DNA of 64,000 nt from Candidatus Thorarchaeota archaeon (GCA_048882045.1 JBHLRZ010000019.1:1-64000), one strand, 5' to 3'. Shown: positions 4,613 to 28,003, counted from the first letter of the stretch. Notes: generated from the sequence alone by a model not told the origin. A program made the numbers and translations.

Positions 4613-6568
4613 CTGGCCAGAGGAAAACGTAGAAGAGGCAAATTTCGAAGAGGCCATGCTCCATATCTTGCTAAGATTAGATTCTTCTGGTGTGACTCCT
4701 GCAATGTTCCAAGAATTGCAGATACAGACTGCAATGTTTGCGGAACCTCTCCTCGAAAGGTGAACCTATCTCCTCCAGGAGACCCTTTCCCCGCAATGGA
4801 GGGCCATCTTGAACGTGCGATCAGTACTCTAGATATTCAATTTGGGAACGGTGTAGGGAAATCTCTGCTTCCATCTAACAAAGTTGTAGTGATGAACAAG
4901 GTTTCATCTCTTGATGCCATGTATGAGGTCATTGTAGATGGTTTCATCGTTGGTCGTCTTAGATTTGACATTCCAAAACGTGGATACACGTTCCTCCTAT
5001 CGCTTGAAGGAGCACGAAGAGTAGGTGCTGTCAGTAAACAGAAATGGGTTTCACTACATGATGGTGTCCTGAAATACCTGAAAGACGGCGCCAACCTCAT
5101 GGTTCCTGGTGTTCAAGGTTGTGACTCTGATATCGAGATTAATGATGAGGTCTGGATTATTGATTCTGATGGAATGGTTGTTGCTGCCGGAATTGCAAGG
5201 ATGACAGGGGCCGAGATAGCAAAGGAATCCAAAGGCTTTGCAGTGAAGATACGCTCAGTCGACAACCCAATAGGTCCGTCTGAAAATCCGAAGGAATCTA
5301 CGTGGGAGGATGCTGTTCACTCAAACTTGAGGGATCTTGAGAATGTTGAAACCGAGGCGATATCCTTTGTCAAGAGGACAATAGAAAGACAGCCTGATAT
5401 TCCAGTAGTAGTCGCTTTCAGTGGAGGCAAGGACTCTTTAGCCACGTATCTAGTGGTTGAGAAAGCAATACGGGAGAGTCCTCCCATATTCTTTATGGAC
5501 ACTGGTATTGAACTCCCTGAAACGATTGAATATATTGAGAACTTTGCCAACTCTCGGGATACAAAGATCATAGGTCAGAGAGCTGGTGAAAGATTCTGGG
5601 AATCTGTTGATACATTTGGTCCTCCCGCACGAGACTTCAGATGGTGCTGCAAGGTCCTTAAACTCGGTCCAGCAGCCACCTCAATTGCTGATGAAATGGG
5701 TGGTGAAAACTTGAGCTTTATGGGACAGAGGAAACTGGAATCCTACCAGCGATCCATTGAGCCTAGAGTCACAGAAAATCCATGGGTACCAGGTCAGACA
5801 TCCGCGAACCCAATCCAGAACTGGAACGCTCTGGAAGTCTGGCTCTACATCTTCCACAAAAGAGAGCACTTCAACCCTCTCTACAATCGAGGATACCATC
5901 GCATGGGATGTTATCTGTGCCCCTCATCACCCCTAGCAGAACTAGAGAGTCTAAGAGAGACCCACCCCATACTTCACAAGCAATGGATGTCCAAAATGAA
6001 GGAATGGGCCGATAAGTATGGTTTTCCTGACGAATGGGTTGACATGGGATTCTGGAGATGGAAGAACCTACCACAGGGCCAGATGGAACTAGTAAACAAA
6101 CTTGGTCTGAACATCGAACCAGATAGGTCCAGTCCTGGACAGAGTCTGAACCTGACAGTAACAAAAGGAGTTTCGCCGTGTGTCAAATCTGGCTTTAGTC
6201 TGGAGGGATCTTTTTCGTCAGGGATTGACCTGAATCGAGTGTCCAAGCTGTTTCCCATATTCGGAAAGACCAAACTGTCAGAAGAGCTGGGTGCCCTACG
6301 TACTTCGGCCGGTGAGAACAGCATCGCGCTGTTCAGCTCAGGATCAGTAGTGATACGAGGAGATAAGGAGAAGTCTGTGGAGCGCCTTACAGACCAGATA
6401 GAACGTGCCATGAAGAGGGCCTTATTCTGTCAGGCATGCGGATCCTGTATCCCTCAATGTGAACATGGTGCCCTCAATCTAGATGATGGAAGGCTTGCAG
6501 TGGATGAGGAGAAATGCACAAACTGCCTCAAGTGCGATAATTGGCCTTGTCCTGTATATCTCTCTTAG
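4613..6568 (+). CDS. PAPS-reductase family protein (N-terminal Zn finger, PUA domain, PP-loop, C-terminal 4Fe-4S)
   Basis: SGGKDS PP-loop, WCCK, GCYLC, C-terminal CxxCxxCxxxC and CxxCxxC. The frame stays open 49 codons upstream of 4760 (WCDSCNVP...CNVCG) to a CTG at 4613 that follows an in-frame TAG. Confidence 0.85.
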   Translation: MARGKRRRGKFRRGHAPYLAKIRFFWCDSCNVPRIADTDCNVCGTSPRKVNLSPPGDPFPAMEGHLERAISTLDIQFGNGVGKSLLPSNKVVVMNKVSSLDAMYEVIVDGFIVGRLRFDIPKRGYTFLLSLEGARRVGAVSKQKWVSLHDGVLKYLKDGANLMVPGVQGCDSDIEINDEVWIIDSDGMVVAAGIARMTGAEIAKESKGFAVKIRSVDNPIGPSENPKESTWEDAVHSNLRDLENVETEAISFVKRTIERQPDIPVVVAFSGGKDSLATYLVVEKAIRESPPIFFMDTGIELPETIEYIENFANSRDTKIIGQRAGERFWESVDTFGPPARDFRWCCKVLKLGPAATSIADEMGGENLSFMGQRKLESYQRSIEPRVTENPWVPGQTSANPIQNWNALEVWLYIFHKREHFNPLYNRGYHRMGCYLCPSSPLAELESLRETHPILHKQWMSKMKEWADKYGFPDEWVDMGFWRWKNLPQGQMELVNKLGLNIEPDRSSPGQSLNLTVTKGVSPCVKSGFSLEGSFSSGIDLNRVSKLFPIFGKTKLSEELGALRTSAGENSIALFSSGSVVIRGDKEKSVERLTDQIERAMKRALFCQACGSCIPQCEHGALNLDDGRLAVDEEKCTNCLKCDNWPCPVYLS

Positions 6569-9205: not shown

Positions 9206-10582
9206 ATGACTCGGTTGGCAAATGTCATGCTGTCGGCAATCAGTCTGAGCATCTACGAATACCGAAAGTATCTAGTGCTCACACTTGCCATTTCACTGAT
9301 TGCAATCCCGATTGCTGATGTTCTTGTAATTCAACGTGATAGAAACAGGAACGAGATGTATGGTGAGGCATTCTGGATTTATGGCTTTGAAATCTATAAT
9401 ATGAACGATACAGTTCTAGTTGAGATGATTGACGACCTACATCCAGAGTGGAACTTTGATGATGGTACTCATGTCCTCCCTGATTATCTCGAGAATGTGA
9501 ACTATGAATATCCTGTGTTCGGATTGTTCTTCTTTGCGATAGCCACCTGGTTATTCCCTGGAGCAGGAGGATTACAACAACTATGGCTTAATTTCCTCCT
9601 TGTCTTGGTCTTCAATCTGAATTTGGTCTTACTAGCAATCCTCCTTCGTGATAAGATCAAAACTGAATACTGGGCTAGAATGTTCTTTGGAGGTTATTTC
9701 ATCTATGGTCTCATGATGTCTGCAGGTGCAGGAAAACTGGAACCGGTTGTAGATTGCCTACTCTTGATGTCAATCGTTCTTTGGACCGAAAAACAACATG
9801 GCAAGGCTATGTTCACTCTAGGTTTGGGTGTCCAGACCAAAATTTATCCTGCTGTAGTTTTTCCATTGTTCTTTCTGGGAAATCCCGTTTCTTCAATCTG
9901 GTTCTTCTTGTCGATGATCATGTCGATAATTCCCACATTGTTTGGAGCAAGTTTCGAATCACTCATATCGCATTTCCTGAACACTTCCAGCTATAGTGCA
10001 TATATTATCAATCCACTATACCCGGGACTAACATGGGGTACACCAGATCTCACAACAGAGTCATCCACGTTCTATACCTGGATTCCTGCATTGATCCCCC
10101 TTGTGATCTACACCTTCTTTGTCATAAAGACAGTCCGTCCATACTTGCCATCGAGAAGTGAACTTGAAGGTAAGTCTCTCAGGCTGAAATTGTTGACACT
10201 CAAACCATTCTACCTCTATATGTTGCCCGGTATACTCTTCGTTTTCCGTTGGATTATGCCTTGGTATCTCTACTGGCTTGGAATAGTAGTAGTAATGTTT
10301 GACAAGAATGAACATGCTATTGGATATGTGAAAATACTCACAGTAGTCGGATTCCTCTATGCATTCGGAATACTTTGTAACTGGCCATATTTCATCTCAG
10401 GTCCGTTACCAGACTTCTTTGAACACTTCCCACTACAATGGTGGATGACGTTTATCCTTCTTGTTGTCCTTGGATTCTCAATAGCCATAGCCTATAACGT
10501 CTGGAAATGGGAATTCGATCGGCGTGAGAAAAAAGCAAAACTCATTCGCGAAGCAGAAGCTCGTGGGGAACTAATAATCTGA
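9206..10582 (+). CDS. Polytopic membrane protein, GT-C/GT87-like glycosyltransferase
   Basis: YEYP loop motif, LGxxTKIYP, MPWYLYW; many TM helices; start uncertain (9206 or 9227). Confidence 0.65.
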   Translation: MTRLANVMLSAISLSIYEYRKYLVLTLAISLIAIPIADVLVIQRDRNRNEMYGEAFWIYGFEIYNMNDTVLVEMIDDLHPEWNFDDGTHVLPDYLENVNYEYPVFGLFFFAIATWLFPGAGGLQQLWLNFLLVLVFNLNLVLLAILLRDKIKTEYWARMFFGGYFIYGLMMSAGAGKLEPVVDCLLLMSIVLWTEKQHGKAMFTLGLGVQTKIYPAVVFPLFFLGNPVSSIWFFLSMIMSIIPTLFGASFESLISHFLNTSSYSAYIINPLYPGLTWGTPDLTTESSTFYTWIPALIPLVIYTFFVIKTVRPYLPSRSELEGKSLRLKLLTLKPFYLYMLPGILFVFRWIMPWYLYWLGIVVVMFDKNEHAIGYVKILTVVGFLYAFGILCNWPYFISGPLPDFFEHFPLQWWMTFILLVVLGFSIAIAYNVWKWEFDRREKKAKLIREAEARGELII

Positions 10583-20191: not shown

Positions 20192-21709
20192 ATGAGTAAT
20201 CAAAAGTCAGAGAATGTCAGTTTTGAGAGTATCTCCCCTGCAGAATTCTTCTACAGAAACAGGCAGATGGCTGGCTTTGGAAACCCAACACAGGCTGTCT
20301 ATTCTACGGTGCGAGAGTTAGTCGAGAATAGTCTTGATTCGTGTGAGGATGCAGGTAAACAACCCTACATTGAGATAGACATACAGAATGAGATATCCGA
20401 CACAATTACGATCACAGTTTCAGACAACGGTTCTGGAGTTCCAGCAGACCAGATTCCTGATGCCTTTGGCAGGGTTCTCTATGGGAGCAAGTACTCACAA
20501 CGACAGAAACGAGGAACCTTCGGTCTAGGAGTGACAATGGCTATTCTCTATGGGCAGATTTCTACAGATAGTCCAATAGTAATCCATTCTAAAACAGCTG
20601 GGTCAAAAGGAGTGCAGTATCATCTTCTCGTTGACGTAGAAAACAATCAACCCATAATAGAAAAGCGCGAGGACCTTCAACGAGCTGAGAATGGAACGAC
20701 AGTCACAGTTACTCTCAAAGGTGACATAAAACGTGCCCAGGATCGCATCATGGACTACCTCAAACTCTCTACGGTATCCACTCCTAATGCAAGAATTAGT
20801 CTTTCCATAGATGATGATGTTGTCACTAGCTTTGGAGGGTTTTCTGACATACTTCCGATTCCAGTGAGAGTGTCACTACCACATCCACGAGCCGCAGATC
20901 TTGAATTGCTTAGAAGACTTGTCCAACGAAGCGGAACGAAGACACTTCGTGACTTTCTCTGTGACTCCTTCCAGAAAGTTGGTCCAAAGACGGCCTCAAA
21001 ATTTCTCCAATTCATGAATATGGACGCAAGTAAGAAAGTAAGTGAAATGAAACGTGAGGATTTGACCCGGTTGGGAACCGCACTTCGAAAATATGACGAA
21101 TTCGAAAAACCTGACAGCAGATGTCTCAGTCCAATTGGAAAGCAAGAGTTTGTTCATGCAGTTTCTTCTCAGTTTAACACCTCCATGACACACTATTCAA
21201 TGAGGGGCCCAAGTGAGTGGCAAGGAAATCCGTTCGTGGTCGAGGCTGTCTTGGCTACAGGAGATGAGTTTCCAAGATCAGACACTCCCACGCTGTATCG
21301 ATTTGCCAACCGAGTTCCTCTTCTCTACGATTCAAGTGATGACATTCTGATGAAAGTCATGAAACGAGTTAGGTGGACTCGGTATAATATACATACTGCA
21401 GTTCCAGTTGCTCTGTTTGTACATATCTGCTCTACTAAGATTCCTTTCAAAGCGGCAGGAAAACAATCAATCGCTTCTGTAGATGAAATTGAGAACGAGG
21501 TCCAACTCTTGTTCAAGGAACTCGGAAGGAGGCTCAATAAGATGACCACCAAGGTCCAAGCAGCTTCCCGAGAAGCAAAGAAAATGCGTGAATTTGCCAA
21601 ATCATTCAGACAGATTGTCAGATTCAGTGCAGCCTTGGCAGAACTTGAGTCTGTCCCTTCGACTGAGAAACTGGTTGAGGCACTATTTGAGGTGGATAAT
21701 GATGCATGA
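20192..21709 (+). CDS. top6B: DNA topoisomerase VI subunit B
   Basis: ELVENSLD, DNGSG, RGTFGLG GHKL motifs; H2TH; RFANRVPLLYD. Confidence 0.96.
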   Translation: MSNQKSENVSFESISPAEFFYRNRQMAGFGNPTQAVYSTVRELVENSLDSCEDAGKQPYIEIDIQNEISDTITITVSDNGSGVPADQIPDAFGRVLYGSKYSQRQKRGTFGLGVTMAILYGQISTDSPIVIHSKTAGSKGVQYHLLVDVENNQPIIEKREDLQRAENGTTVTVTLKGDIKRAQDRIMDYLKLSTVSTPNARISLSIDDDVVTSFGGFSDILPIPVRVSLPHPRAADLELLRRLVQRSGTKTLRDFLCDSFQKVGPKTASKFLQFMNMDASKKVSEMKREDLTRLGTALRKYDEFEKPDSRCLSPIGKQEFVHAVSSQFNTSMTHYSMRGPSEWQGNPFVVEAVLATGDEFPRSDTPTLYRFANRVPLLYDSSDDILMKVMKRVRWTRYNIHTAVPVALFVHICSTKIPFKAAGKQSIASVDEIENEVQLLFKELGRRLNKMTTKVQAASREAKKMREFAKSFRQIVRFSAALAELESVPSTEKLVEALFEVDNDA

Positions 21710-22754
21710 TCCAGAGAAAGCTCTGAATGCTCTGAGAGAACTCGGTAACAATATCCTCCAACCAATCCTAGCAGAGAAATTTCCAGTTTTAGAAATTCCT
21801 GATAGAAAAACTGACAACATCGTTTTCGATGAAACTCGAAACCATTTTGTTTTGGGACAGTCATCAACTGTGCGTGATTCAAGTAATGTCAAACATGTTC
21901 GAAGTTTCGCGCAGTTGACTTGGATAGCGGCATTTGCCAAGGAACTGATTGAATCATCTAGAACTAGTTCACTTAGAGACCTCTACTACTCTTCTGAGGC
22001 CTTTGGAGTGAAGTTCAATAGTCAATCAGAGTCTGATAGAGTTGTCACCGACCTAGAAAGCATCACTGGTCTTCCTAGAGAGAGTTTTGGAATATATCCT
22101 GAAGAACACTCGTCAATATACGGCAAGGTCAAGATGCAATATACAGTTCCAGGATATGAAGGAAAGGAGATAGATCTAACAGTCAGTCCAGACGGATTGC
22201 CTATTGGACCCGCGCTCATGACTGCTGAACCTGTTGATTCAGATGCACAGATTGTCTTGGCTGTGGAATCAGGCGGGATGTTTTCTCGACTCATCGAAAC
22301 GAAGGCATGGGACAGATTCAGTGCTGTTCTAGTGCAATTGGGAGGTCAACCTCCGCGAGCTACACGGCGTTTAATGAGAAATCTTCACATGTCATTGGGT
22401 CTGCCCGTGTTTATTTTCACAGATGGAGATCCCTGGGGAATGCACATTGCGAAAGTCATTATGAGTGGTAGTGCAAATGCCGCACACATTAGAGAGCTCA
22501 CCATACCCTCTGCAAAATGGATAGGTGTCACCCCCGAGGACATAGAAGAGTATGCACTTCCAACAGAATCGATGAACAATCAAGACCTGAAGAGGTTAGA
22601 AGAACTCTCTCGGGATGTACGATACAAGGATCAGGTCTGGCAAAATCACATTCGTGATTTTCGAAGGATGTTGGTGAAAGCTGAACAACAAGCCTTTAGC
22701 AGATATGGTATGGACTTCGTTGTCGACACTTACCTTTCTGACAAGCTGCTCTAG
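21699..22754 (+). CDS. top6A: DNA topoisomerase VI subunit A
   Basis: SLRDLYY catalytic Tyr, VES, FTDGDPWG TOPRIM, KAEQQA. Confidence 0.96.
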   Translation: MMHDPEKALNALRELGNNILQPILAEKFPVLEIPDRKTDNIVFDETRNHFVLGQSSTVRDSSNVKHVRSFAQLTWIAAFAKELIESSRTSSLRDLYYSSEAFGVKFNSQSESDRVVTDLESITGLPRESFGIYPEEHSSIYGKVKMQYTVPGYEGKEIDLTVSPDGLPIGPALMTAEPVDSDAQIVLAVESGGMFSRLIETKAWDRFSAVLVQLGGQPPRATRRLMRNLHMSLGLPVFIFTDGDPWGMHIAKVIMSGSANAAHIRELTIPSAKWIGVTPEDIEEYALPTESMNNQDLKRLEELSRDVRYKDQVWQNHIRDFRRMLVKAEQQAFSRYGMDFVVDTYLSDKLL

Positions 22755-22755
22755 G

Positions 22756-23787
22756 TCACATTAGACTGAGTGGTAACCCTACAAGAAGGAGCATCACAGC
22801 TCCATATGCAATCACAGCTTGGATGAACAATAACAGGTTTACGTTCTTCTTCTCAGTGATGTTCTTTGAGATGTAAGGTAGCAACCAGTACATTGTGAAG
22901 GGACCTACTACTTCAAGAGTTCCGTCCTCTCGTGGGGAAGCAAATTTCACATACTCCATGTTCCTACGTCTGACCCACACACGATAGAACAGATAGAGAA
23001 TGAAATTGAGAAGGAATGGCGAATACATCGCTATAGCCAAACGATCCATGTTTCCCAAGATTAGAGCTGATGCCATTGCAGCACCAATTGGAAGTCTTCC
23101 AACATCTCCTGGTAGAACCTTTGCTGGATATCGATTGAAGTAAAAGAACGCAACGGAAGCTCCCAAAAGCGAAGCTGCAACTGTCCCTGAGTCGGTCAGT
23201 GCAGTGGTAATCTCTTGTCCACTGACGAATGGATATGCAATGACGTATATGACAATAGCTGACCCATTGATTATGCCTAGACCTGTTTCAAGACCGTTCA
23301 TGCCTCCATACATGTTGGTTGAGTCCACTATGAAGGTCACCATTAATGGAACAATCAAGAGGGCATAGAACACTCCAAAGTTTATGGTTCCGATGAAAGG
23401 AATCGTCATCGTAGGTGTTCCTACACTCATTACAACCATCGGGATTGAGGCTACAAGCGGCAGTGCAATCTTGGTTCTGTTTTTGAAATCAAAGGAGTCA
23501 TCTAAGAGTCCAATGAGTCCTGCCATAAGAATCGACACTAGTGCTGCTAATAATCCCTCACGTATTTCAACTTGAACTTGGAAAGTTGTTAATCCCATGA
23601 CCACAAGTAAACCCGACACAATGGCAAAAAGGAGAATAAAACCTCCTCCCTTTGGAACCTCTGGTTTCTCAGGTTTATGGACATCAATTCCCGTCATCCC
23701 TCTCTCTCTAAGCATTCTGATTGTACCCGGCATGAAAAGGACTACGATGAAAAAGGAAATCAGCACTGCAATAAGAATAGTAATCAA
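22756..23787 (-). CDS. aglH: UDP-GlcNAc:dolichol-phosphate GlcNAc-1-phosphotransferase (AglH/ALG7, MraY/GT4 family)
   Basis: GIDVHKP, PKGGG, GLLDD, NMYGGMNGLE, FNRYPAKVLPGDVG. Confidence 0.88.
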   Translation of the reverse strand: MITILIAVLISFFIVVLFMPGTIRMLRERGMTGIDVHKPEKPEVPKGGGFILLFAIVSGLLVVMGLTTFQVQVEIREGLLAALVSILMAGLIGLLDDSFDFKNRTKIALPLVASIPMVVMSVGTPTMTIPFIGTINFGVFYALLIVPLMVTFIVDSTNMYGGMNGLETGLGIINGSAIVIYVIAYPFVSGQEITTALTDSGTVAASLLGASVAFFYFNRYPAKVLPGDVGRLPIGAAMASALILGNMDRLAIAMYSPFLLNFILYLFYRVWVRRRNMEYVKFASPREDGTLEVVGPFTMYWLLPYISKNITEKKNVNLLLFIQAVIAYGAVMLLLVGLPLSLM

Positions 23788-23977
23788 GGCAGGTTCACTT
23801 TCCGAGGTTTCTGCATTTCATTTTAGTTTTGACCTTTTCGGGCAATCATTTTGTTTGTGCATGCTTTCAACATCCGAAATCTATAATAACAAACCAGAAG
23901 CTCGAGCGGACAATTCCCTGTCTAGTGGATTCTGAATCCACCGGGCAAAAACCCCAAATAAACTACGGTGATTCGTA

Positions 23978-26959
23978 TTGAGCCTGTTTAAACGTAAGAT
24001 AGGAACCATAATACTACTGACCCTTTTTGTGACAAGTAGCTTTATGGCCCTCGCTCCCATCTCAAGTACTTCGGAATCAGAATATTTGGCTCAGAGTAAG
24101 GGCTTTGGGTCCACATTAGCCGAAGCAAGGATGAATCTATCCGTTCCTTATGTTGATAACCACTATGGTTCTGCAGATGGAATAATCGATCCATGGGAAT
24201 ATGCTTTCGAGTATACGGATCCAGTGACTGGGGTTAATGCATATTTTGAACACAATGGAACTGTGTTGTACATTGGACTGGAGGCCATGACCTCTGGATG
24301 GATTGGGTTTGCATGGCAGAACTATACAGGTACTTTCCGTAATGCTGGTCTAAACAACAGCGACGTGATTGTTGGTTATACTCCTGGAGTGACTCACTCA
24401 TCACACTACTGGAGAGTAGCGCCAACTGATGCAGTTACTGTACACTATGTATTGACACGTAGAGACGGTACATTCTTACAAGAGGCTGATTTCCCTGATC
24501 TCACTTCCACTGATCCAGTGGGGAGCTTGCCCGCTCTTCAAGGATACAAAGATGCGATTCTTGGAATGAGAATTGGTGAAGTCCGTCACTTCGTCATCCC
24601 AGCTGAAGAAGCATACAACACACCTGGTCATGAGCTATATGGTCTGGACCTCGTTTATGATATTGAACTCACAAGAATCGAAAGAGCAAGTATCGACCGG
24701 GTAGAAAATCCAGCAGATCAGTGTGACATTGTATACAGCGACGAGTATGGTACTAGCACATTCCAACATCTACCAGATGCTGACCAATCAAGAATTCTAG
24801 AAGCGAATGGTTTTGACAATGGAACATACACTCAGGTGGAATATGCAATACTGATGAACAGTACTGATATCAATGATATAGGGCTGTTCAACAGCACTGA
24901 CATCCAGTTTCCATTCGTATTCATGTTTGGTGCCAATGAAGAACTGAACGGGCTACCAACTCAGCACACATACTGGTCCGAACCAGCCCTCACAAACTTT
25001 GTTCCTAACGCTCCACCCACAATGTATGTGGTAAGTCCTAAGCCGGGTGAAACTGTTGAGTGGGTCGCAAAGCTGCAACTCAATGCCACGGATGACTTTG
25101 TCCAGACTGCGGTCTTTAAGGTAGATGATGAGGACAGTTGGTCTAACATGACTTGGAACTTCAAGTCTAAGCTCTGGGAAGAGAATGCTGACATGACATC
25201 ATACGATGATGGTCCACATACTATAACATTCAATACAACAGATCCCTCGGGTCTTTCAGGACTTGCGACCGTTGACATAGTAGTGAACATTCCATATACC
25301 CCAAATCGCGGAATGCGTGTGGATGTCGTAAGGTCACTTCTCACAACTGAACACTTTGGCAACCGCGTTGATGATACCTACACTATCACGAACAATGGAT
25401 CTTCACCAATAAACTCACTAGATGTATACCTGCCAGCTAGGTATGCTGACAACTTCCTCTCCATGGAGGCTAGTGACCTAGGAGAAAACGAAGTCCAAGT
25501 TGTTAGAATGACAGACTCCAATGGGATGCTTCATTGGAGGTTGCATTTCTACATACCAATTGGATATCAAGAATCGTACACCTTTGAAACAAAGATGTAC
25601 ATGACCTCACTGTTCTGGCTGACTATTCCTAATGAATGGGAATATCGCTTGGAGTTCTTGAAATATCCTCTTATCTCATACGTCATAGGTCGAGGTGAAT
25701 TCGCACTCAACTTCGAACAGGGTGGTTCACTAATTCCTAGTGAAGAGATTCCAGACTCAGTAGATAATAACATAGTCCCATTCACAGAAACCGAGTTCAG
25801 TGTACGCTTGCGGCTCTTTAGTAACAATATCATTGGGAACCGTAAGACCACTGTCATCATTGATGCATGGGGCTGGATGACCTATAGAGAAACAGTAAGT
25901 CTGGATAACACTGGAGGAGGCGTTTTAAATTCCATTGAATTCCTTCTTCCTGCGTATTCTGCATCTATTAGAATCTATGATGAGGTTGGGGTTCTCGCAC
26001 AGTCTCAGAGAACAATTTCCCAGCCCAGTTTCAACGAAACAGCTTCAATCGATGTGAACTTAGTCCGAGACAGGTTTTCGCTGGGTCTGCAGCCTGGCTT
26101 CAAGTACACTTTCCAAGTCGACTATATTGTGCAGTCATCGAGCTACCAAGAGGCCATTGAATCTGGAAACAAGCTGACTATTCCGATGGCTGTACTGGAG
26201 GATGTTCTCATCCAGAAACATGATATTGATGTTGTATTTCCAGTGTCGGTTTCTCTAGTGCAGGCGTCGGAAGGATATCGTACGATATACGGAGTATTTG
26301 ACACCTCACTGAGATATACTACATACAATACAACACAAAGAAATCCTCTCAAAATTGAAGTCGTCTATCAAGTATCTCTTGGTGCTGCAGCGCGACCAAC
26401 AATCTTTGCATTGATAATAGGTTTCATTGGACTCCTTTATGTGACCCGCAGAAAGGTTGAACTACCTGAAGAAGTCACGGGTCCACGAGTTGATGAGGAA
26501 TTCGATGATCTCCAGCCACGTCAGACTGGTGCTCCTTCAGAACTCCTCTCTGAATTTGCAAACCTCTATTCGAGGAAGACAGCTCTCAACATGGACTTGG
26601 AGAAGCTCGAAGCTGCTAGAAGGAGAGGAAAGATCAAGAAGCGAGAGTATATGATTCGGGAGCGTGATCTGAAGAACCAAATCGATGAGATTGACTCGAG
26701 TCTACCTAATTTGAGAGATGAAATGATAAGTTACGGTCCCAAGTATCGTGACTTGGTAGCACAGCTCGAACTTCAGGATGAACGCATTGAGGGTGCAAAG
26801 GCTGGTCTGCGTCAGCTTCTTCTGAGGAAAAAGAAGCAGCGAATCAGTCGTGCAGCCTTTGAGAAGTCCCGTCAGGACTATCTTAAGACAATCCAGAAGG
26901 CAACAACTGCTACTGACCGGATCCTATTATCAATACAGGAAGAAGCTGGAGACCTCTAG
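23978..26959 (+). CDS. Type I membrane protein: signal peptide, DOMON-like domain with inserted FKBP, Ig-like domain, ribophorin-I-like region, TM helix, cytoplasmic coiled coil
   Basis: GWIGFAW...SDVIVGY (DOMON); VTVHY...GMRIGEVRHFVIPAEEAY...DLVYDIEL (FKBP); IDAWGWMTYRETVSLDN...IYDEVG...DRFSLGLQPGFKYTFQVDY (ribophorin I-like); TM PTIFALIIGFIGLLYV. Confidence 0.7.
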   Translation: MSLFKRKIGTIILLTLFVTSSFMALAPISSTSESEYLAQSKGFGSTLAEARMNLSVPYVDNHYGSADGIIDPWEYAFEYTDPVTGVNAYFEHNGTVLYIGLEAMTSGWIGFAWQNYTGTFRNAGLNNSDVIVGYTPGVTHSSHYWRVAPTDAVTVHYVLTRRDGTFLQEADFPDLTSTDPVGSLPALQGYKDAILGMRIGEVRHFVIPAEEAYNTPGHELYGLDLVYDIELTRIERASIDRVENPADQCDIVYSDEYGTSTFQHLPDADQSRILEANGFDNGTYTQVEYAILMNSTDINDIGLFNSTDIQFPFVFMFGANEELNGLPTQHTYWSEPALTNFVPNAPPTMYVVSPKPGETVEWVAKLQLNATDDFVQTAVFKVDDEDSWSNMTWNFKSKLWEENADMTSYDDGPHTITFNTTDPSGLSGLATVDIVVNIPYTPNRGMRVDVVRSLLTTEHFGNRVDDTYTITNNGSSPINSLDVYLPARYADNFLSMEASDLGENEVQVVRMTDSNGMLHWRLHFYIPIGYQESYTFETKMYMTSLFWLTIPNEWEYRLEFLKYPLISYVIGRGEFALNFEQGGSLIPSEEIPDSVDNNIVPFTETEFSVRLRLFSNNIIGNRKTTVIIDAWGWMTYRETVSLDNTGGGVLNSIEFLLPAYSASIRIYDEVGVLAQSQRTISQPSFNETASIDVNLVRDRFSLGLQPGFKYTFQVDYIVQSSSYQEAIESGNKLTIPMAVLEDVLIQKHDIDVVFPVSVSLVQASEGYRTIYGVFDTSLRYTTYNTTQRNPLKIEVVYQVSLGAAARPTIFALIIGFIGLLYVTRRKVELPEEVTGPRVDEEFDDLQPRQTGAPSELLSEFANLYSRKTALNMDLEKLEAARRRGKIKKREYMIRERDLKNQIDEIDSSLPNLRDEMISYGPKYRDLVAQLELQDERIEGAKAGLRQLLLRKKKQRISRAAFEKSRQDYLKTIQKATTATDRILLSIQEEAGDL

Positions 26960-27075: not shown

Positions 27076-27927
27076 ATGAACAACGAAGTTCTAGATCGTG
27101 AAAAAATACGTGCGCGCTCCCTCTTACCAAGTGAATCAAAGGCTCTTGAGATGTATCAATACCTTACCGGATCCCCCAAGGTCCAGTCATATCTTCGTTC
27201 TGCCAATCGAATGGCCGTTTCAAGACTGGGCTATACTGACCATGGGGCTGTCCATGCAGAGGTAGCCACTTGGAACGCATTGAAAGTCTTTGATATCTTG
27301 GATGAAACATTCAGACCGAATGTGGTCGCAGAGGGAATCGGTGACACTGACGACGCACGACTCATTATCCTCGCCTCTACATACCTGCATGACATCGGAA
27401 TGGTCGTCCATAGAAGTGAGCACTATCAAGCCTCAATCAATCTAGCAAGCCCAATTCTCGAACCAAAATTGATGGACATCTATGAAGATCCTGCTAAGGC
27501 CACGGACATACTCTCGTTCATACTACATGGAATCTATGCACATGATGATGATACACAGTGCCTGACATTTGAGGCTGGAATCACCAAGCTAGGCGACGGG
27601 GCTGACATGACAAAAGGGAGGACAAAGGTTCCGTTTCAGAAGGGCAAAGTCGATATCCATTCCGTCAGTGCCCTGGCAATCAACAATGTTCTTCTTGAGA
27701 AGGGAAAAGAGAAACCCCTATCGATCACTGTTGCCATGGATAATCCCGCAGGTGTATTTCAGGTCGAAGCGGTCCTTGAGAAAAAGATCTCAACATCTGG
27801 TCTACAGGATCATATTGGAATTGAAGTCCTAGTTAACGGCGACCGTCTTGTTCTCTCACATGTAAAGCGACTCTTTAGGGTTGAGATGTCAAATAGTGGA
27901 AACGGCATTCTTCCAGAAGAAAAGTAG
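27076..27927 (+). CDS. HD-domain phosphohydrolase
   Basis: LGYTDHGAVH, YLHDIG, YAHD, GDGADM. Confidence 0.88.
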   Translation: MNNEVLDREKIRARSLLPSESKALEMYQYLTGSPKVQSYLRSANRMAVSRLGYTDHGAVHAEVATWNALKVFDILDETFRPNVVAEGIGDTDDARLIILASTYLHDIGMVVHRSEHYQASINLASPILEPKLMDIYEDPAKATDILSFILHGIYAHDDDTQCLTFEAGITKLGDGADMTKGRTKVPFQKGKVDIHSVSALAINNVLLEKGKEKPLSITVAMDNPAGVFQVEAVLEKKISTSGLQDHIGIEVLVNGDRLVLSHVKRLFRVEMSNSGNGILPEEK

Positions 27928-28003
27928 TGGTAGCCCCGCCAGGATTTGAACCTGGGTCTGAGAGGCCAAAACCCTCAATGCTTGGCCGCTACACCACGGG
28001 GCT
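27928..28003 (-). tRNA. tRNA-Gln(TTG), CCA encoded
   Basis: Cloverleaf AGCCCCG...GAGGG TT TTG GC CTCTC...GGTTCAAATCC...CGGGGCTACCA. Confidence 0.95.

Follow-up and report, generated by a model that had tools for sequence, protein, structure and literature searches.

A Thorarchaeial OST1/ribophorin I orthologue with an FKBP domain nested in a DOMON-fold head

Introduction

OST1, or ribophorin I, is a "eukaryotic signature" translocon subunit of Asgard archaea whose luminal function is poorly defined even in eukaryotes. The closest described archaeal system is the OST1 protein of "Ca. Prometheoarchaeum syntrophicum" MK-D1, the cytoplasmic domain of which (PDB 8WHN) is a bundle that shares its topology with the ribosome-interacting domain of human RPN1; 80S ribosomes were pulled down by this cytosolic bundle and not by the extracellular domains (PMC11417166). 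In the human system, FKBP11 is an FKBP anchored by a transmembrane (TM) segment that has a basic, ribosome-binding tail and adjoins OST-A (PMC12804085). Here we analyze a gene at positions 23978..26959 (+) of a 64,000-nucleotide stretch of DNA from a Candidatus Thorarchaeota archaeon (GCA_048882045.1, JBHLRZ010000019.1:1-64000; the whole stretch is referred to below as the window), which encodes the OST1/ribophorin I orthologue of Thorarchaeia, OST1 being an accessory subunit of the AglB/STT3 oligosaccharyltransferase (OST). Ahead of the OST1 body, its 993-amino-acid (aa) product carries a head in which an FKBP domain sits inside a DOMON-fold beta-sandwich and is followed by an Ig-like domain, and we regard this architecture, taken together with the OST1 orthology, as very probable. 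The original prediction for this locus had proposed a structure search with a predicted model, and structure searches with such models returned Ost1, FKBP, and DOMON matches.

An OST1/ribophorin I body

The orthology to OST1 is carried by residues 436-993, for which an AF2 model was built from a 60-row alignment (pLDDT 90). Human RPN1 matched this C-terminal model with a Foldseek E value of 1e-28 and a VIA Z score of 32.0 over 517 aligned residues, and yeast Ost1 matched it at Foldseek E values of 1e-18 to 1e-21 and a VIA Z of about 30, while the next unrelated fold lay at a Foldseek E value of 1e-9 and a Z of 13.4. At the sequence level, the Pfam Ribophorin_I profile (PF04597; positions 249-417 of 437) matches residues 642-806 with 31.4 bits against a cutoff of 25. 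Ribophorin I-like regions had been part of the original prediction, and the luminal C-terminal region indeed resembles ribophorin I very strongly: the first luminal beta-sandwich spans residues 446-645 (25313..25912, +) in the AF2 model and matches RPN1/Ost1, and the second spans residues 650-800 (25925..26377, +), where the Pfam profile and the structure matches agree. Ordinary relatives of this protein, recovered by a library-wide phmmer search, are 560 to 620 aa long and align with it only over residues about 440-990, and several of them match Pfam Ribophorin_I at E values of 1e-11 to 1e-17.

A whole-genome profile scan found this to be the sole Ribophorin_I locus in the genome, which is 93% complete. 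STT3/AglB (908 aa) and an OST3/6-like protein are each encoded once in the same genome, on a contig other than that of OST1, and the protein studied here is a predicted physical subunit of the STT3/AglB complex. On that contig (C11 of genome G000), positions 4880-6061 (-) and 9663-9977 (-) correspond to STT3/AglB and the OST3/6-like TM protein, which lie on the same strand about 3.6 kb apart; of the 294 positions of the Pfam model, the 140-aa OST3/6-like protein matches only 183-284, the TM part.

Gene structure and membrane topology

The sequence from 23978 to 26959 (+) reads as one uninterrupted open reading frame (ORF) of 993 codons that begins with TTG, and a GGTGA motif lies 8 to 12 nt 5' of this start. 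In the orthologue alignment, the starts of the orthologues coincide with that of the window gene, and the sequence there reads MSLL.RKIGT; homologues listed as 971-aa forms are those in which gene callers chose Met23 as the start, which cuts off the signal peptide. The product is a type I membrane protein, and its parts follow one another in the order signal peptide, DOMON half, FKBP domain, DOMON half, Ig-like domain, two ribophorin I beta-sandwiches, TM helix, and cytosolic domain.

The signal peptide (residues 1-30; 23978..24067, +) was read from the sequence as a KRK n-region, a hydrophobic core, and ALA-P, and it is conserved among orthologues. A single TM helix (residues 801-828, followed by RRK; 26378..26461, +) appears as a helix in the AF2 model of the C-terminal region (model residues 366-393). 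Both elements had been anticipated in the original prediction. The protein contains 13 N-x-S/T sequons, all of them N-terminal of the TM helix and none after it, compared with 7.3 ± 2.4 expected from composition, and 7 of the 13 are invariant. Because an N-terminal signal peptide is present, the only TM helix is followed by RRK, and the sequons are confined to the region before that helix, we place the head and the OST1 sandwiches outside the cell and the C-terminal bundle in the cytoplasm.

More than 200 full-length homologues were found, with 52 to 100% identity, all in Thorarchaeota-type Asgard archaea. They derive from metagenome-assembled genomes assigned to Thorarchaeota, Sifarchaeia, and Promethearchaeota, and their database labels ("FKBP-type peptidyl-prolyl cis-trans isomerase" or "hypothetical") hide the OST1 orthology of these proteins. 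The sequencing runs that contain the locus are sediment DNA metagenomes only, several of which may be its source, with no RNA run listed.

A cytosolic bundle related to the ribosome-binding domain of OST1/RPN1

Residues 829-993 form the cytosolic tail, in which the AF2 model shows a disordered linker after the TM helix and then four long helices at residues 854-990 (26537..26947, +). This tail had earlier been taken for a cytoplasmic coiled coil of about 170 aa, a view that we replace: it is a four-helix bundle homologous to the ribosome-binding domain of OST1/RPN1. A profile of 22 orthologues matches the MK-D1 structure 8WHN with an E value of 1.8e-6, and the bundle model superimposes on that structure with a VIA Z of 18.7, a root mean square deviation (rmsd) of 1.8 Å over 141 of 142 residues, and 21% identity. 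Given this homology and a conservation of 82%, the tail is predicted to bind ribosomes here as well.

Mean pairwise identity is higher in the cytosolic bundle (0.82) than in any other part of the protein. The N-terminal half of the DOMON domain is the most conserved extracellular part (0.71), followed by the FKBP domain (0.63) and the C-terminal DOMON half (0.61), with the OST1 luminal sandwiches (0.50) and the Ig domain (0.49) at the lower end. Judged by these identities, the added head (61 to 71%) is under stronger constraint than the ancestral OST1 luminal core (50%).

A DOMON-fold sandwich interrupted by an FKBP domain

The head was modeled separately with AF2 (residues 24-440; pLDDT 86) and compared by VIA with 48,161 PDB representatives. 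Structures of the DOMON superfamily span residues 53-343 of this model and skip residues 143-239, with 140 to 180 residues aligned. The best of these were the gamma subunit of ethylbenzene dehydrogenase (EBDH gamma, 2IVF_C; Z 15.3), the gamma subunit of nitrite oxidoreductase (NXR gamma; Z 14.4), and the DOMON domain of dopamine beta-hydroxylase (DBH, 4ZEL; Z 13.2), followed by the pyranose dehydrogenase cytochrome and CBM9 (1I82), both at Z 12.2, and by the CDH cytochrome (1D7C; Z 11.8). A Foldseek search of the head model against the PDB returned only Ig and FKBP structures among its best 50 matches; the DOMON matches came from the exhaustive VIA search.

Homology to a recognizable DOMON protein comes from a 602-aa Asgard protein (P0170), which matches Pfam DOMON with an E value of 2.6e-16 and does so with an E value of 3.8e-11 in the region aligned to the head. 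Its BLAST alignment covers residues 55-149 of the window protein (E = 4e-14) and resumes from the same point at residues 254-297 (E = 5e-9). Because P0170 aligns unbroken to both flanking halves, we conclude that the FKBP domain (residues 143-239; 24404..24694, +) lies inserted within a DOMON sandwich hairpin, which bears out the earlier proposal of two DOMON halves on either side of an FKBP unit. The N-terminal half comprises residues 53-142 (24134..24403, +), with the motifs DGIIDPxEY, GWIGFAW, and GLNNSD, and the C-terminal half comprises residues 240-343 (24695..25006, +); both are defined by BLAST to P0170 together with the structure matches. Pfam DOMON (PF03351) itself gave no match to the whole protein or to either separated half at E values up to 10, and we file the domain under the DOMON superfamily rather than as a member of PF03351, since the assignment rests on fold and on transitive homology through P0170.

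At the junction of the insert, residues 139-149 before it (window positions 24392-24424, VTHSSHYWRVAP) and residues 254-267 after it (24737-24778, SDEYGTSTFQHLPD) both align to one and the same stretch of P0170, HHGTSNWTHAPD. Either chance or a small duplication where the FKBP domain was inserted could account for this shared alignment.

The Ig-like domain that closes the head, also foreseen in the original prediction, lies at residues 345-438 (25010..25291, +). Pfam Big_7 matches residues 347-417 weakly, and VIA matches this domain to Ig-like modules of mannanases and sulfite oxidase with Z scores of 11 to 13.7.

Several of the structures closest to the DOMON sandwich are haem-b subunits (EBDH gamma and NXR gamma, and the CDH and pyranose dehydrogenase cytochromes at Z of about 12), and the domain could accordingly be a haem-b cytochrome that passes electrons outside the cell, for example in folding-linked redox chemistry. 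We examined the columns of the axial ligands, which were placed through P0170 and not through a solved cytochrome; a phmmer search with the canonical P0170 DOMON against PDB sequences found no match. As noted in the original prediction, the position of the Met ligand is a leucine: Leu125 is Leu in all 22 orthologues and Leu or Phe in the stand-alone paralogues described below and in the most distant full-length orthologue, while both DOMON domains of P0170 have Met there. An invariant N-glycosylation sequon, N126-N-S128, stands directly beside Leu125. The column of the His ligand does have an invariant residue, His264, in close orthologues, but it is occupied by R, S, Y, or I in P0127, P0130, P0133, and P0135. 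The combination of Met and His (or Lys) that marks a haem-b DOMON was thus not found, and because the ligand columns are not conserved, a cytochrome role for this domain is unlikely; as an explanation of the head as a whole, we consider it highly improbable.

Distribution of the head and its stand-alone paralogues

We surveyed 301 genomes of the phylum, comprising the family to which the window belongs (76 genomes in 17 genera), one genome of a sister family, and 28 other families. The whole head occurs in 73 of the 76 family genomes and in the one sister-family genome, always in ORFs of about 985 to 1,030 aa. It was not found in the roughly 224 genomes of the 28 other Asgard families, where there were isolated Ig, FKBP, or DOMON-half matches only. 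The OST1 core is present in 289 of the 301 genomes, and outside the Thorarchaeial order it is encoded by ORFs of 566 to 634 aa. The DOMON[FKBP]-Ig head is therefore an order-specific addition to OST1. A few fragmented genomes of the family have the head and the OST1 body on separate contigs or in shortened ORFs, one of them with an in-frame TAG (G281:C8:23922-25562 and G281:C183:4158-5333; also G194, G185, and G116); these seem to be breaks in the assembly and not genes that are truly split.

Some Thorarchaeial genomes (G299 and G179) and metagenomes encode, in addition to the fused gene, stand-alone paralogues of 567 to 598 aa that lack OST1. In these proteins a second Ig-like domain follows the DOMON[FKBP]-Ig head, and a stalk rich in Ser/Thr leads to a TM anchor at the C terminus. 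Examples are found at G299:C125:6129-7889 (L009) and on G179:C23 (L010:6534-8321), and the head-only paralogue proteins include P0133, P0135, and P0132. This makes the head a portable module of the cell surface. The neighborhoods of the paralogues in the two genomes contain carotenoid genes in one case and hemerythrin-PAS and aldo-keto reductase genes in the other; they are not conserved and gave no functional clue.

These paralogues raise the alternative that the head has a cell-surface role apart from glycosylation (adhesion, interaction with the envelope, or sensing, for instance), for which OST1 would serve merely as the membrane anchor. The same head on a stalk and anchor without OST1, in surroundings unrelated to glycosylation, is what such a role would lead one to expect. 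However, the only OST1 copy is the one that carries the fused head, and the fusion is kept almost throughout the family as well as in its sister family, a uniformity that a random choice of anchor would be unlikely to preserve, and the head is better conserved than the luminal core of the OST1 that would anchor it. We consider this alternative improbable.

The FKBP pocket and the proposed function of the head

The insert itself is a clear FKBP domain. Pfam FKBP_C (PF00254) matches residues 147-231 with 32.7 bits against a cutoff of 21.1 (E = 1e-7), and the best FKBP structural match is SlyD (VIA Z 13.0, rmsd 1.6, 28% identity), with FKBP13 (Z 11.9, rmsd 2.0, 32% identity) and the FKBP11 of human translocon structure 9YGY (Z 11.4) close behind. 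The insert adopts an FKBP fold, in agreement with the FKBP/SlyD-like unit of the original prediction. A special kinship with FKBPs of the endoplasmic reticulum (ER) was considered and rejected: the insert shares 30% identity with the cytosolic FKBP12-like protein of this genome, which is the same level as for FKBP2 (30 to 32% for ER FKBPs).

To read the ligand pocket, the insert was aligned to FKBP2 and the pocket columns were followed across the 22 orthologues. The reference pocket was that of FKBP12 (Y26, F36, D37, F46, I56, W59, Y82, and F99). In FKBP12 numbering, Y26 and Y82 are retained as the invariant Y157 and Y213, and W59 and F99 are replaced conservatively by the invariant Y190 and Y227. 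D37 is replaced by an equally invariant Q168, F36 corresponds to L167 (L or I in the family, with one F), and F46 corresponds to S177 (S in 21 of 22). Invariant residues make up 5 of the 9 pocket columns compared with 24 of 97 in the whole FKBP domain (hypergeometric p of about 0.04). Since pocket columns are enriched among invariant sites, the pocket is, by this measure, under selection, and its conservation is compatible with catalysis and with binding alike. The most distant full-length orthologue, P0127, has kept the canonical F36 and D37, together with F59, Y82, and F99.

Taken together with the OST1 orthology, these observations lead us to lean toward an account in which the FKBP-in-DOMON head of this OST1 aids nascent chains at a ribosome-docked OST, and we think it somewhat likely to be correct. 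The functional idea in the original prediction, a one-chain link between protein folding and N-glycosylation comparable to ER quality control, is plausible. The cytosolic bundle would dock a translating ribosome at the Sec/OST site, as shown for the Lokiarchaeial homologue, and the head, which would sit at the distal end of OST1 on the outer side of the membrane, would meet nascent chains during their emergence and glycosylation. Its FKBP pocket could bind or isomerize prolyl segments, and the non-haem DOMON sandwich could offer an adjacent binding surface for an unfolded chain or a glycan, a pairing akin to the arrangement of peptidyl-prolyl isomerase (PPIase) and chaperone in SlyD, trigger factor, and SurA. 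That the head has a folding or holding role at OST, considered by itself, is a tentative proposal, finely balanced and leaning slightly to doubt. More ambitious still is the idea that Thorarchaeia have hard-wired a folding or ligand-recognition head (FKBP plus DOMON) onto a ribosome-docking OST1 and so physically coupled, within one machine, translation, translocation, and N-glycosylation to a step in which the nascent glycoprotein is helped to fold or is checked; we offer it as possible, though doubtful.

Three observations weigh against a head that acts as a folding enzyme on nascent chains. First, the family pocket is off the catalytic consensus at several places (the invariant change of D37 to Q, F36 to L or I, W59 to Y, and F46 to S), a departure that may have weakened or abolished isomerase activity. 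Second, in the only translocon example with a solved structure, the pocket of human FKBP11 is buried by CCDC134, and the authors of that work argue that FKBP11 is an adaptor, not an isomerase (PMC12804085). Third, the existence of head-only paralogues means that the head can work away from OST1.

The first two of these points bear directly on another explanation, namely that the head is a noncatalytic binding or adaptor module for a partner, a client motif, or a glycan (the lipid-linked donor or the nascent N-glycan), which would tune the substrate choice of OST or recruit a factor to it. A pocket that is invariant yet noncanonical (Q168, Y190, and L or I at 167) suggests a specialized ligand, and the FKBP11 pocket provides a precedent for protein binding at OST-A (PMC12804085). 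The DOMON superfamily includes the sugar-binding CBM9, and malectin binds ribophorin I in the ER (PMC9144812). On the other hand, no partner gene is evident in the neighborhood, sugar-binding residues could not be mapped on the DOMON domain, and F36 and D37 of P0127 are of the catalytic type. We judge an adaptor or ligand-binding module to be rather unlikely on balance, and we nevertheless give it substantial weight because FKBP11 has been argued to be an adaptor and not an isomerase.

Whichever function applies, an OST1 that is the only one of its genome and bears a conserved FKBP-in-DOMON head amounts to a natural experiment on the purpose of the outer tip of OST1, and the head is a tractable soluble domain for biochemistry. 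If, as we favor, the head acts on nascent chains, it would represent a folding aid or substrate check coupled to ribosome-docked OST in archaea, in parallel to FKBP11 and malectin.

A divergent GT4 gene and other neighbors

The OST1 gene is arranged head to head with a gene of the GT4 family at 22756..23787 (-), which encodes a polyprenyl-phosphate HexNAc-1-P transferase of AglH/Alg7-like type (Pfam Glycos_transf_4, E = 3.5e-28). Sequence reading places a shared divergent intergenic region of 190 bp between the two (23788..23977), which holds an A/T-rich element, TATAATAA. The original prediction had named both the head-to-head arrangement, which is as described, and aglH as the identity of the neighbor. 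Of the latter claim the family assignment stands, since the genome has no other PF00953 gene, and the finer identity is less certain: the protein is about equally similar to MraY (1e-13) and DPAGT1 (9e-12) among PDB sequences, so that similarity does not tell a DPAGT1-like specificity (UDP-GlcNAc:dolichyl-phosphate) from an MraY/WecA-like one. NCBIfam equivalog cutoffs were not reached for the GT4 gene, and NCBIfam gave no informative equivalog for either the OST1 or the GT4 gene. We treat the GT4 protein as a candidate initiating enzyme of AglH/Alg7 type.

The head-to-head pair of OST1 and GT4 genes was present in 5 of 5 genomes tested, which came from four other genera of the family and from the sister family. 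In five other Asgard families, with one genome tested in each, the two genes were unlinked in three cases and 3.4 kb apart in one, and in the remaining case the GT4 gene followed OST1 on the same strand at a distance of 1 kb. OST1-GT4 linkage thus recurs outside Thorarchaeia in other arrangements; the two same-strand cases come from different Asgard families and lie within 1 to 3.4 kb, at G008:C25:24022-27615 and G011:C23:67636-73541. The shared divergent region suggests that the OST1 and GT4 genes may be co-regulated, and a promoter region shared with the sole initiating GT4 gene would tie expression of OST1 to glycan-donor synthesis.

The other neighbors have no evident link to OST1: they are topoisomerase VI subunits B and A, a 283-aa ORF, tRNA-Gln, and two glycine-cleavage P-protein subunits. 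At window positions 20192-22754, the topoisomerase VI B ORF (505 aa) and the A ORF, listed with 388 aa, share about 120 nt, and the listed GTG start of topoisomerase VI A is probably too far upstream. At 27076-28003, the 283-aa ORF has weak HD-domain and winged-helix matches, and its stop codon directly adjoins the tRNA-Gln (TTG), which is on the other strand.

Comparison with described systems

We found no paper that describes a DOMON[FKBP]-OST1 fusion, within an incomplete coverage of the literature. The nearest described protein is MK-D1 OST1 (WP_147663064.1; 8WHN; PMC11417166), which has the same two luminal beta-sandwiches, single TM helix, and cytosolic four-helix bundle, and the 560- to 620-aa Asgard OST1 proteins in general align end to end with residues about 440-990 of the window protein. 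Relative to OST1 of the MK-D1 type, however, the window protein has about 410 extra N-terminal residues that form the DOMON[FKBP]-Ig head, and its gene stands in a fixed head-to-head pair with a GT4 gene. The fold of human RPN1 (8B6L, 6S7O) and yeast Ost1 (6EZN, 8AGB) is the same over the whole OST1 body (Z 30 to 32), and the cytosolic helical bundle is a feature that the window protein shares with RPN1 and not with yeast Ost1. Identity to the eukaryotic proteins is 12 to 15%, the Pfam model matches in its C-terminal half only, and neither RPN1 nor Ost1 has an FKBP or DOMON head.

For the head, the points of comparison lie elsewhere. With members of the DOMON superfamily (EBDH gamma, DBH, CDH, and CBM9) it shares the beta-sandwich fold (Z 11.8 to 15.3), as well as homology to the Pfam DOMON Asgard protein P0170, but the window domain is interrupted by a whole FKBP domain, has no direct Pfam DOMON match, and does not conserve the haem-ligand columns. 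SlyD/FKBP17 with its IF domain, trigger factor, and SurA resemble it in that a PPIase domain is joined by insertion to a second, substrate-binding domain. In comparison with SlyD, the nesting is inverted in the window protein, where the FKBP domain is the insert, lacks an IF domain, and has a DOMON sandwich as its host; and in comparison with SlyD, trigger factor, and SurA, the window head is extracytoplasmic and tethered to the membrane.

Human FKBP11 (9YGY; PMC12804085) is the nearest functional analogy and is similar in layout, with an extracytoplasmic FKBP, a single TM helix, and a cytosolic ribosome-binding element beside OST, but it is a separate small protein that is dynamically recruited, whereas the window FKBP shares one polypeptide with OST1 and lies within a DOMON domain. 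Shared descent with FKBP11 is unsupported, because identity to ER FKBPs (30 to 32%) is no higher than to the genome's own FKBP (30%). Malectin on ribophorin I (PMC9144812) is alike by a looser analogy, for the DOMON part, as a beta-sandwich ligand-binding module on the luminal side, and differs in being a separate protein of another fold family with a Glc2-glycan ligand. If the favored account is correct, the Thorarchaeial protein would be a single-chain prokaryotic counterpart of the accessory layer that FKBP11 and malectin form at the ER translocon, and such coupling could arise without an ER.

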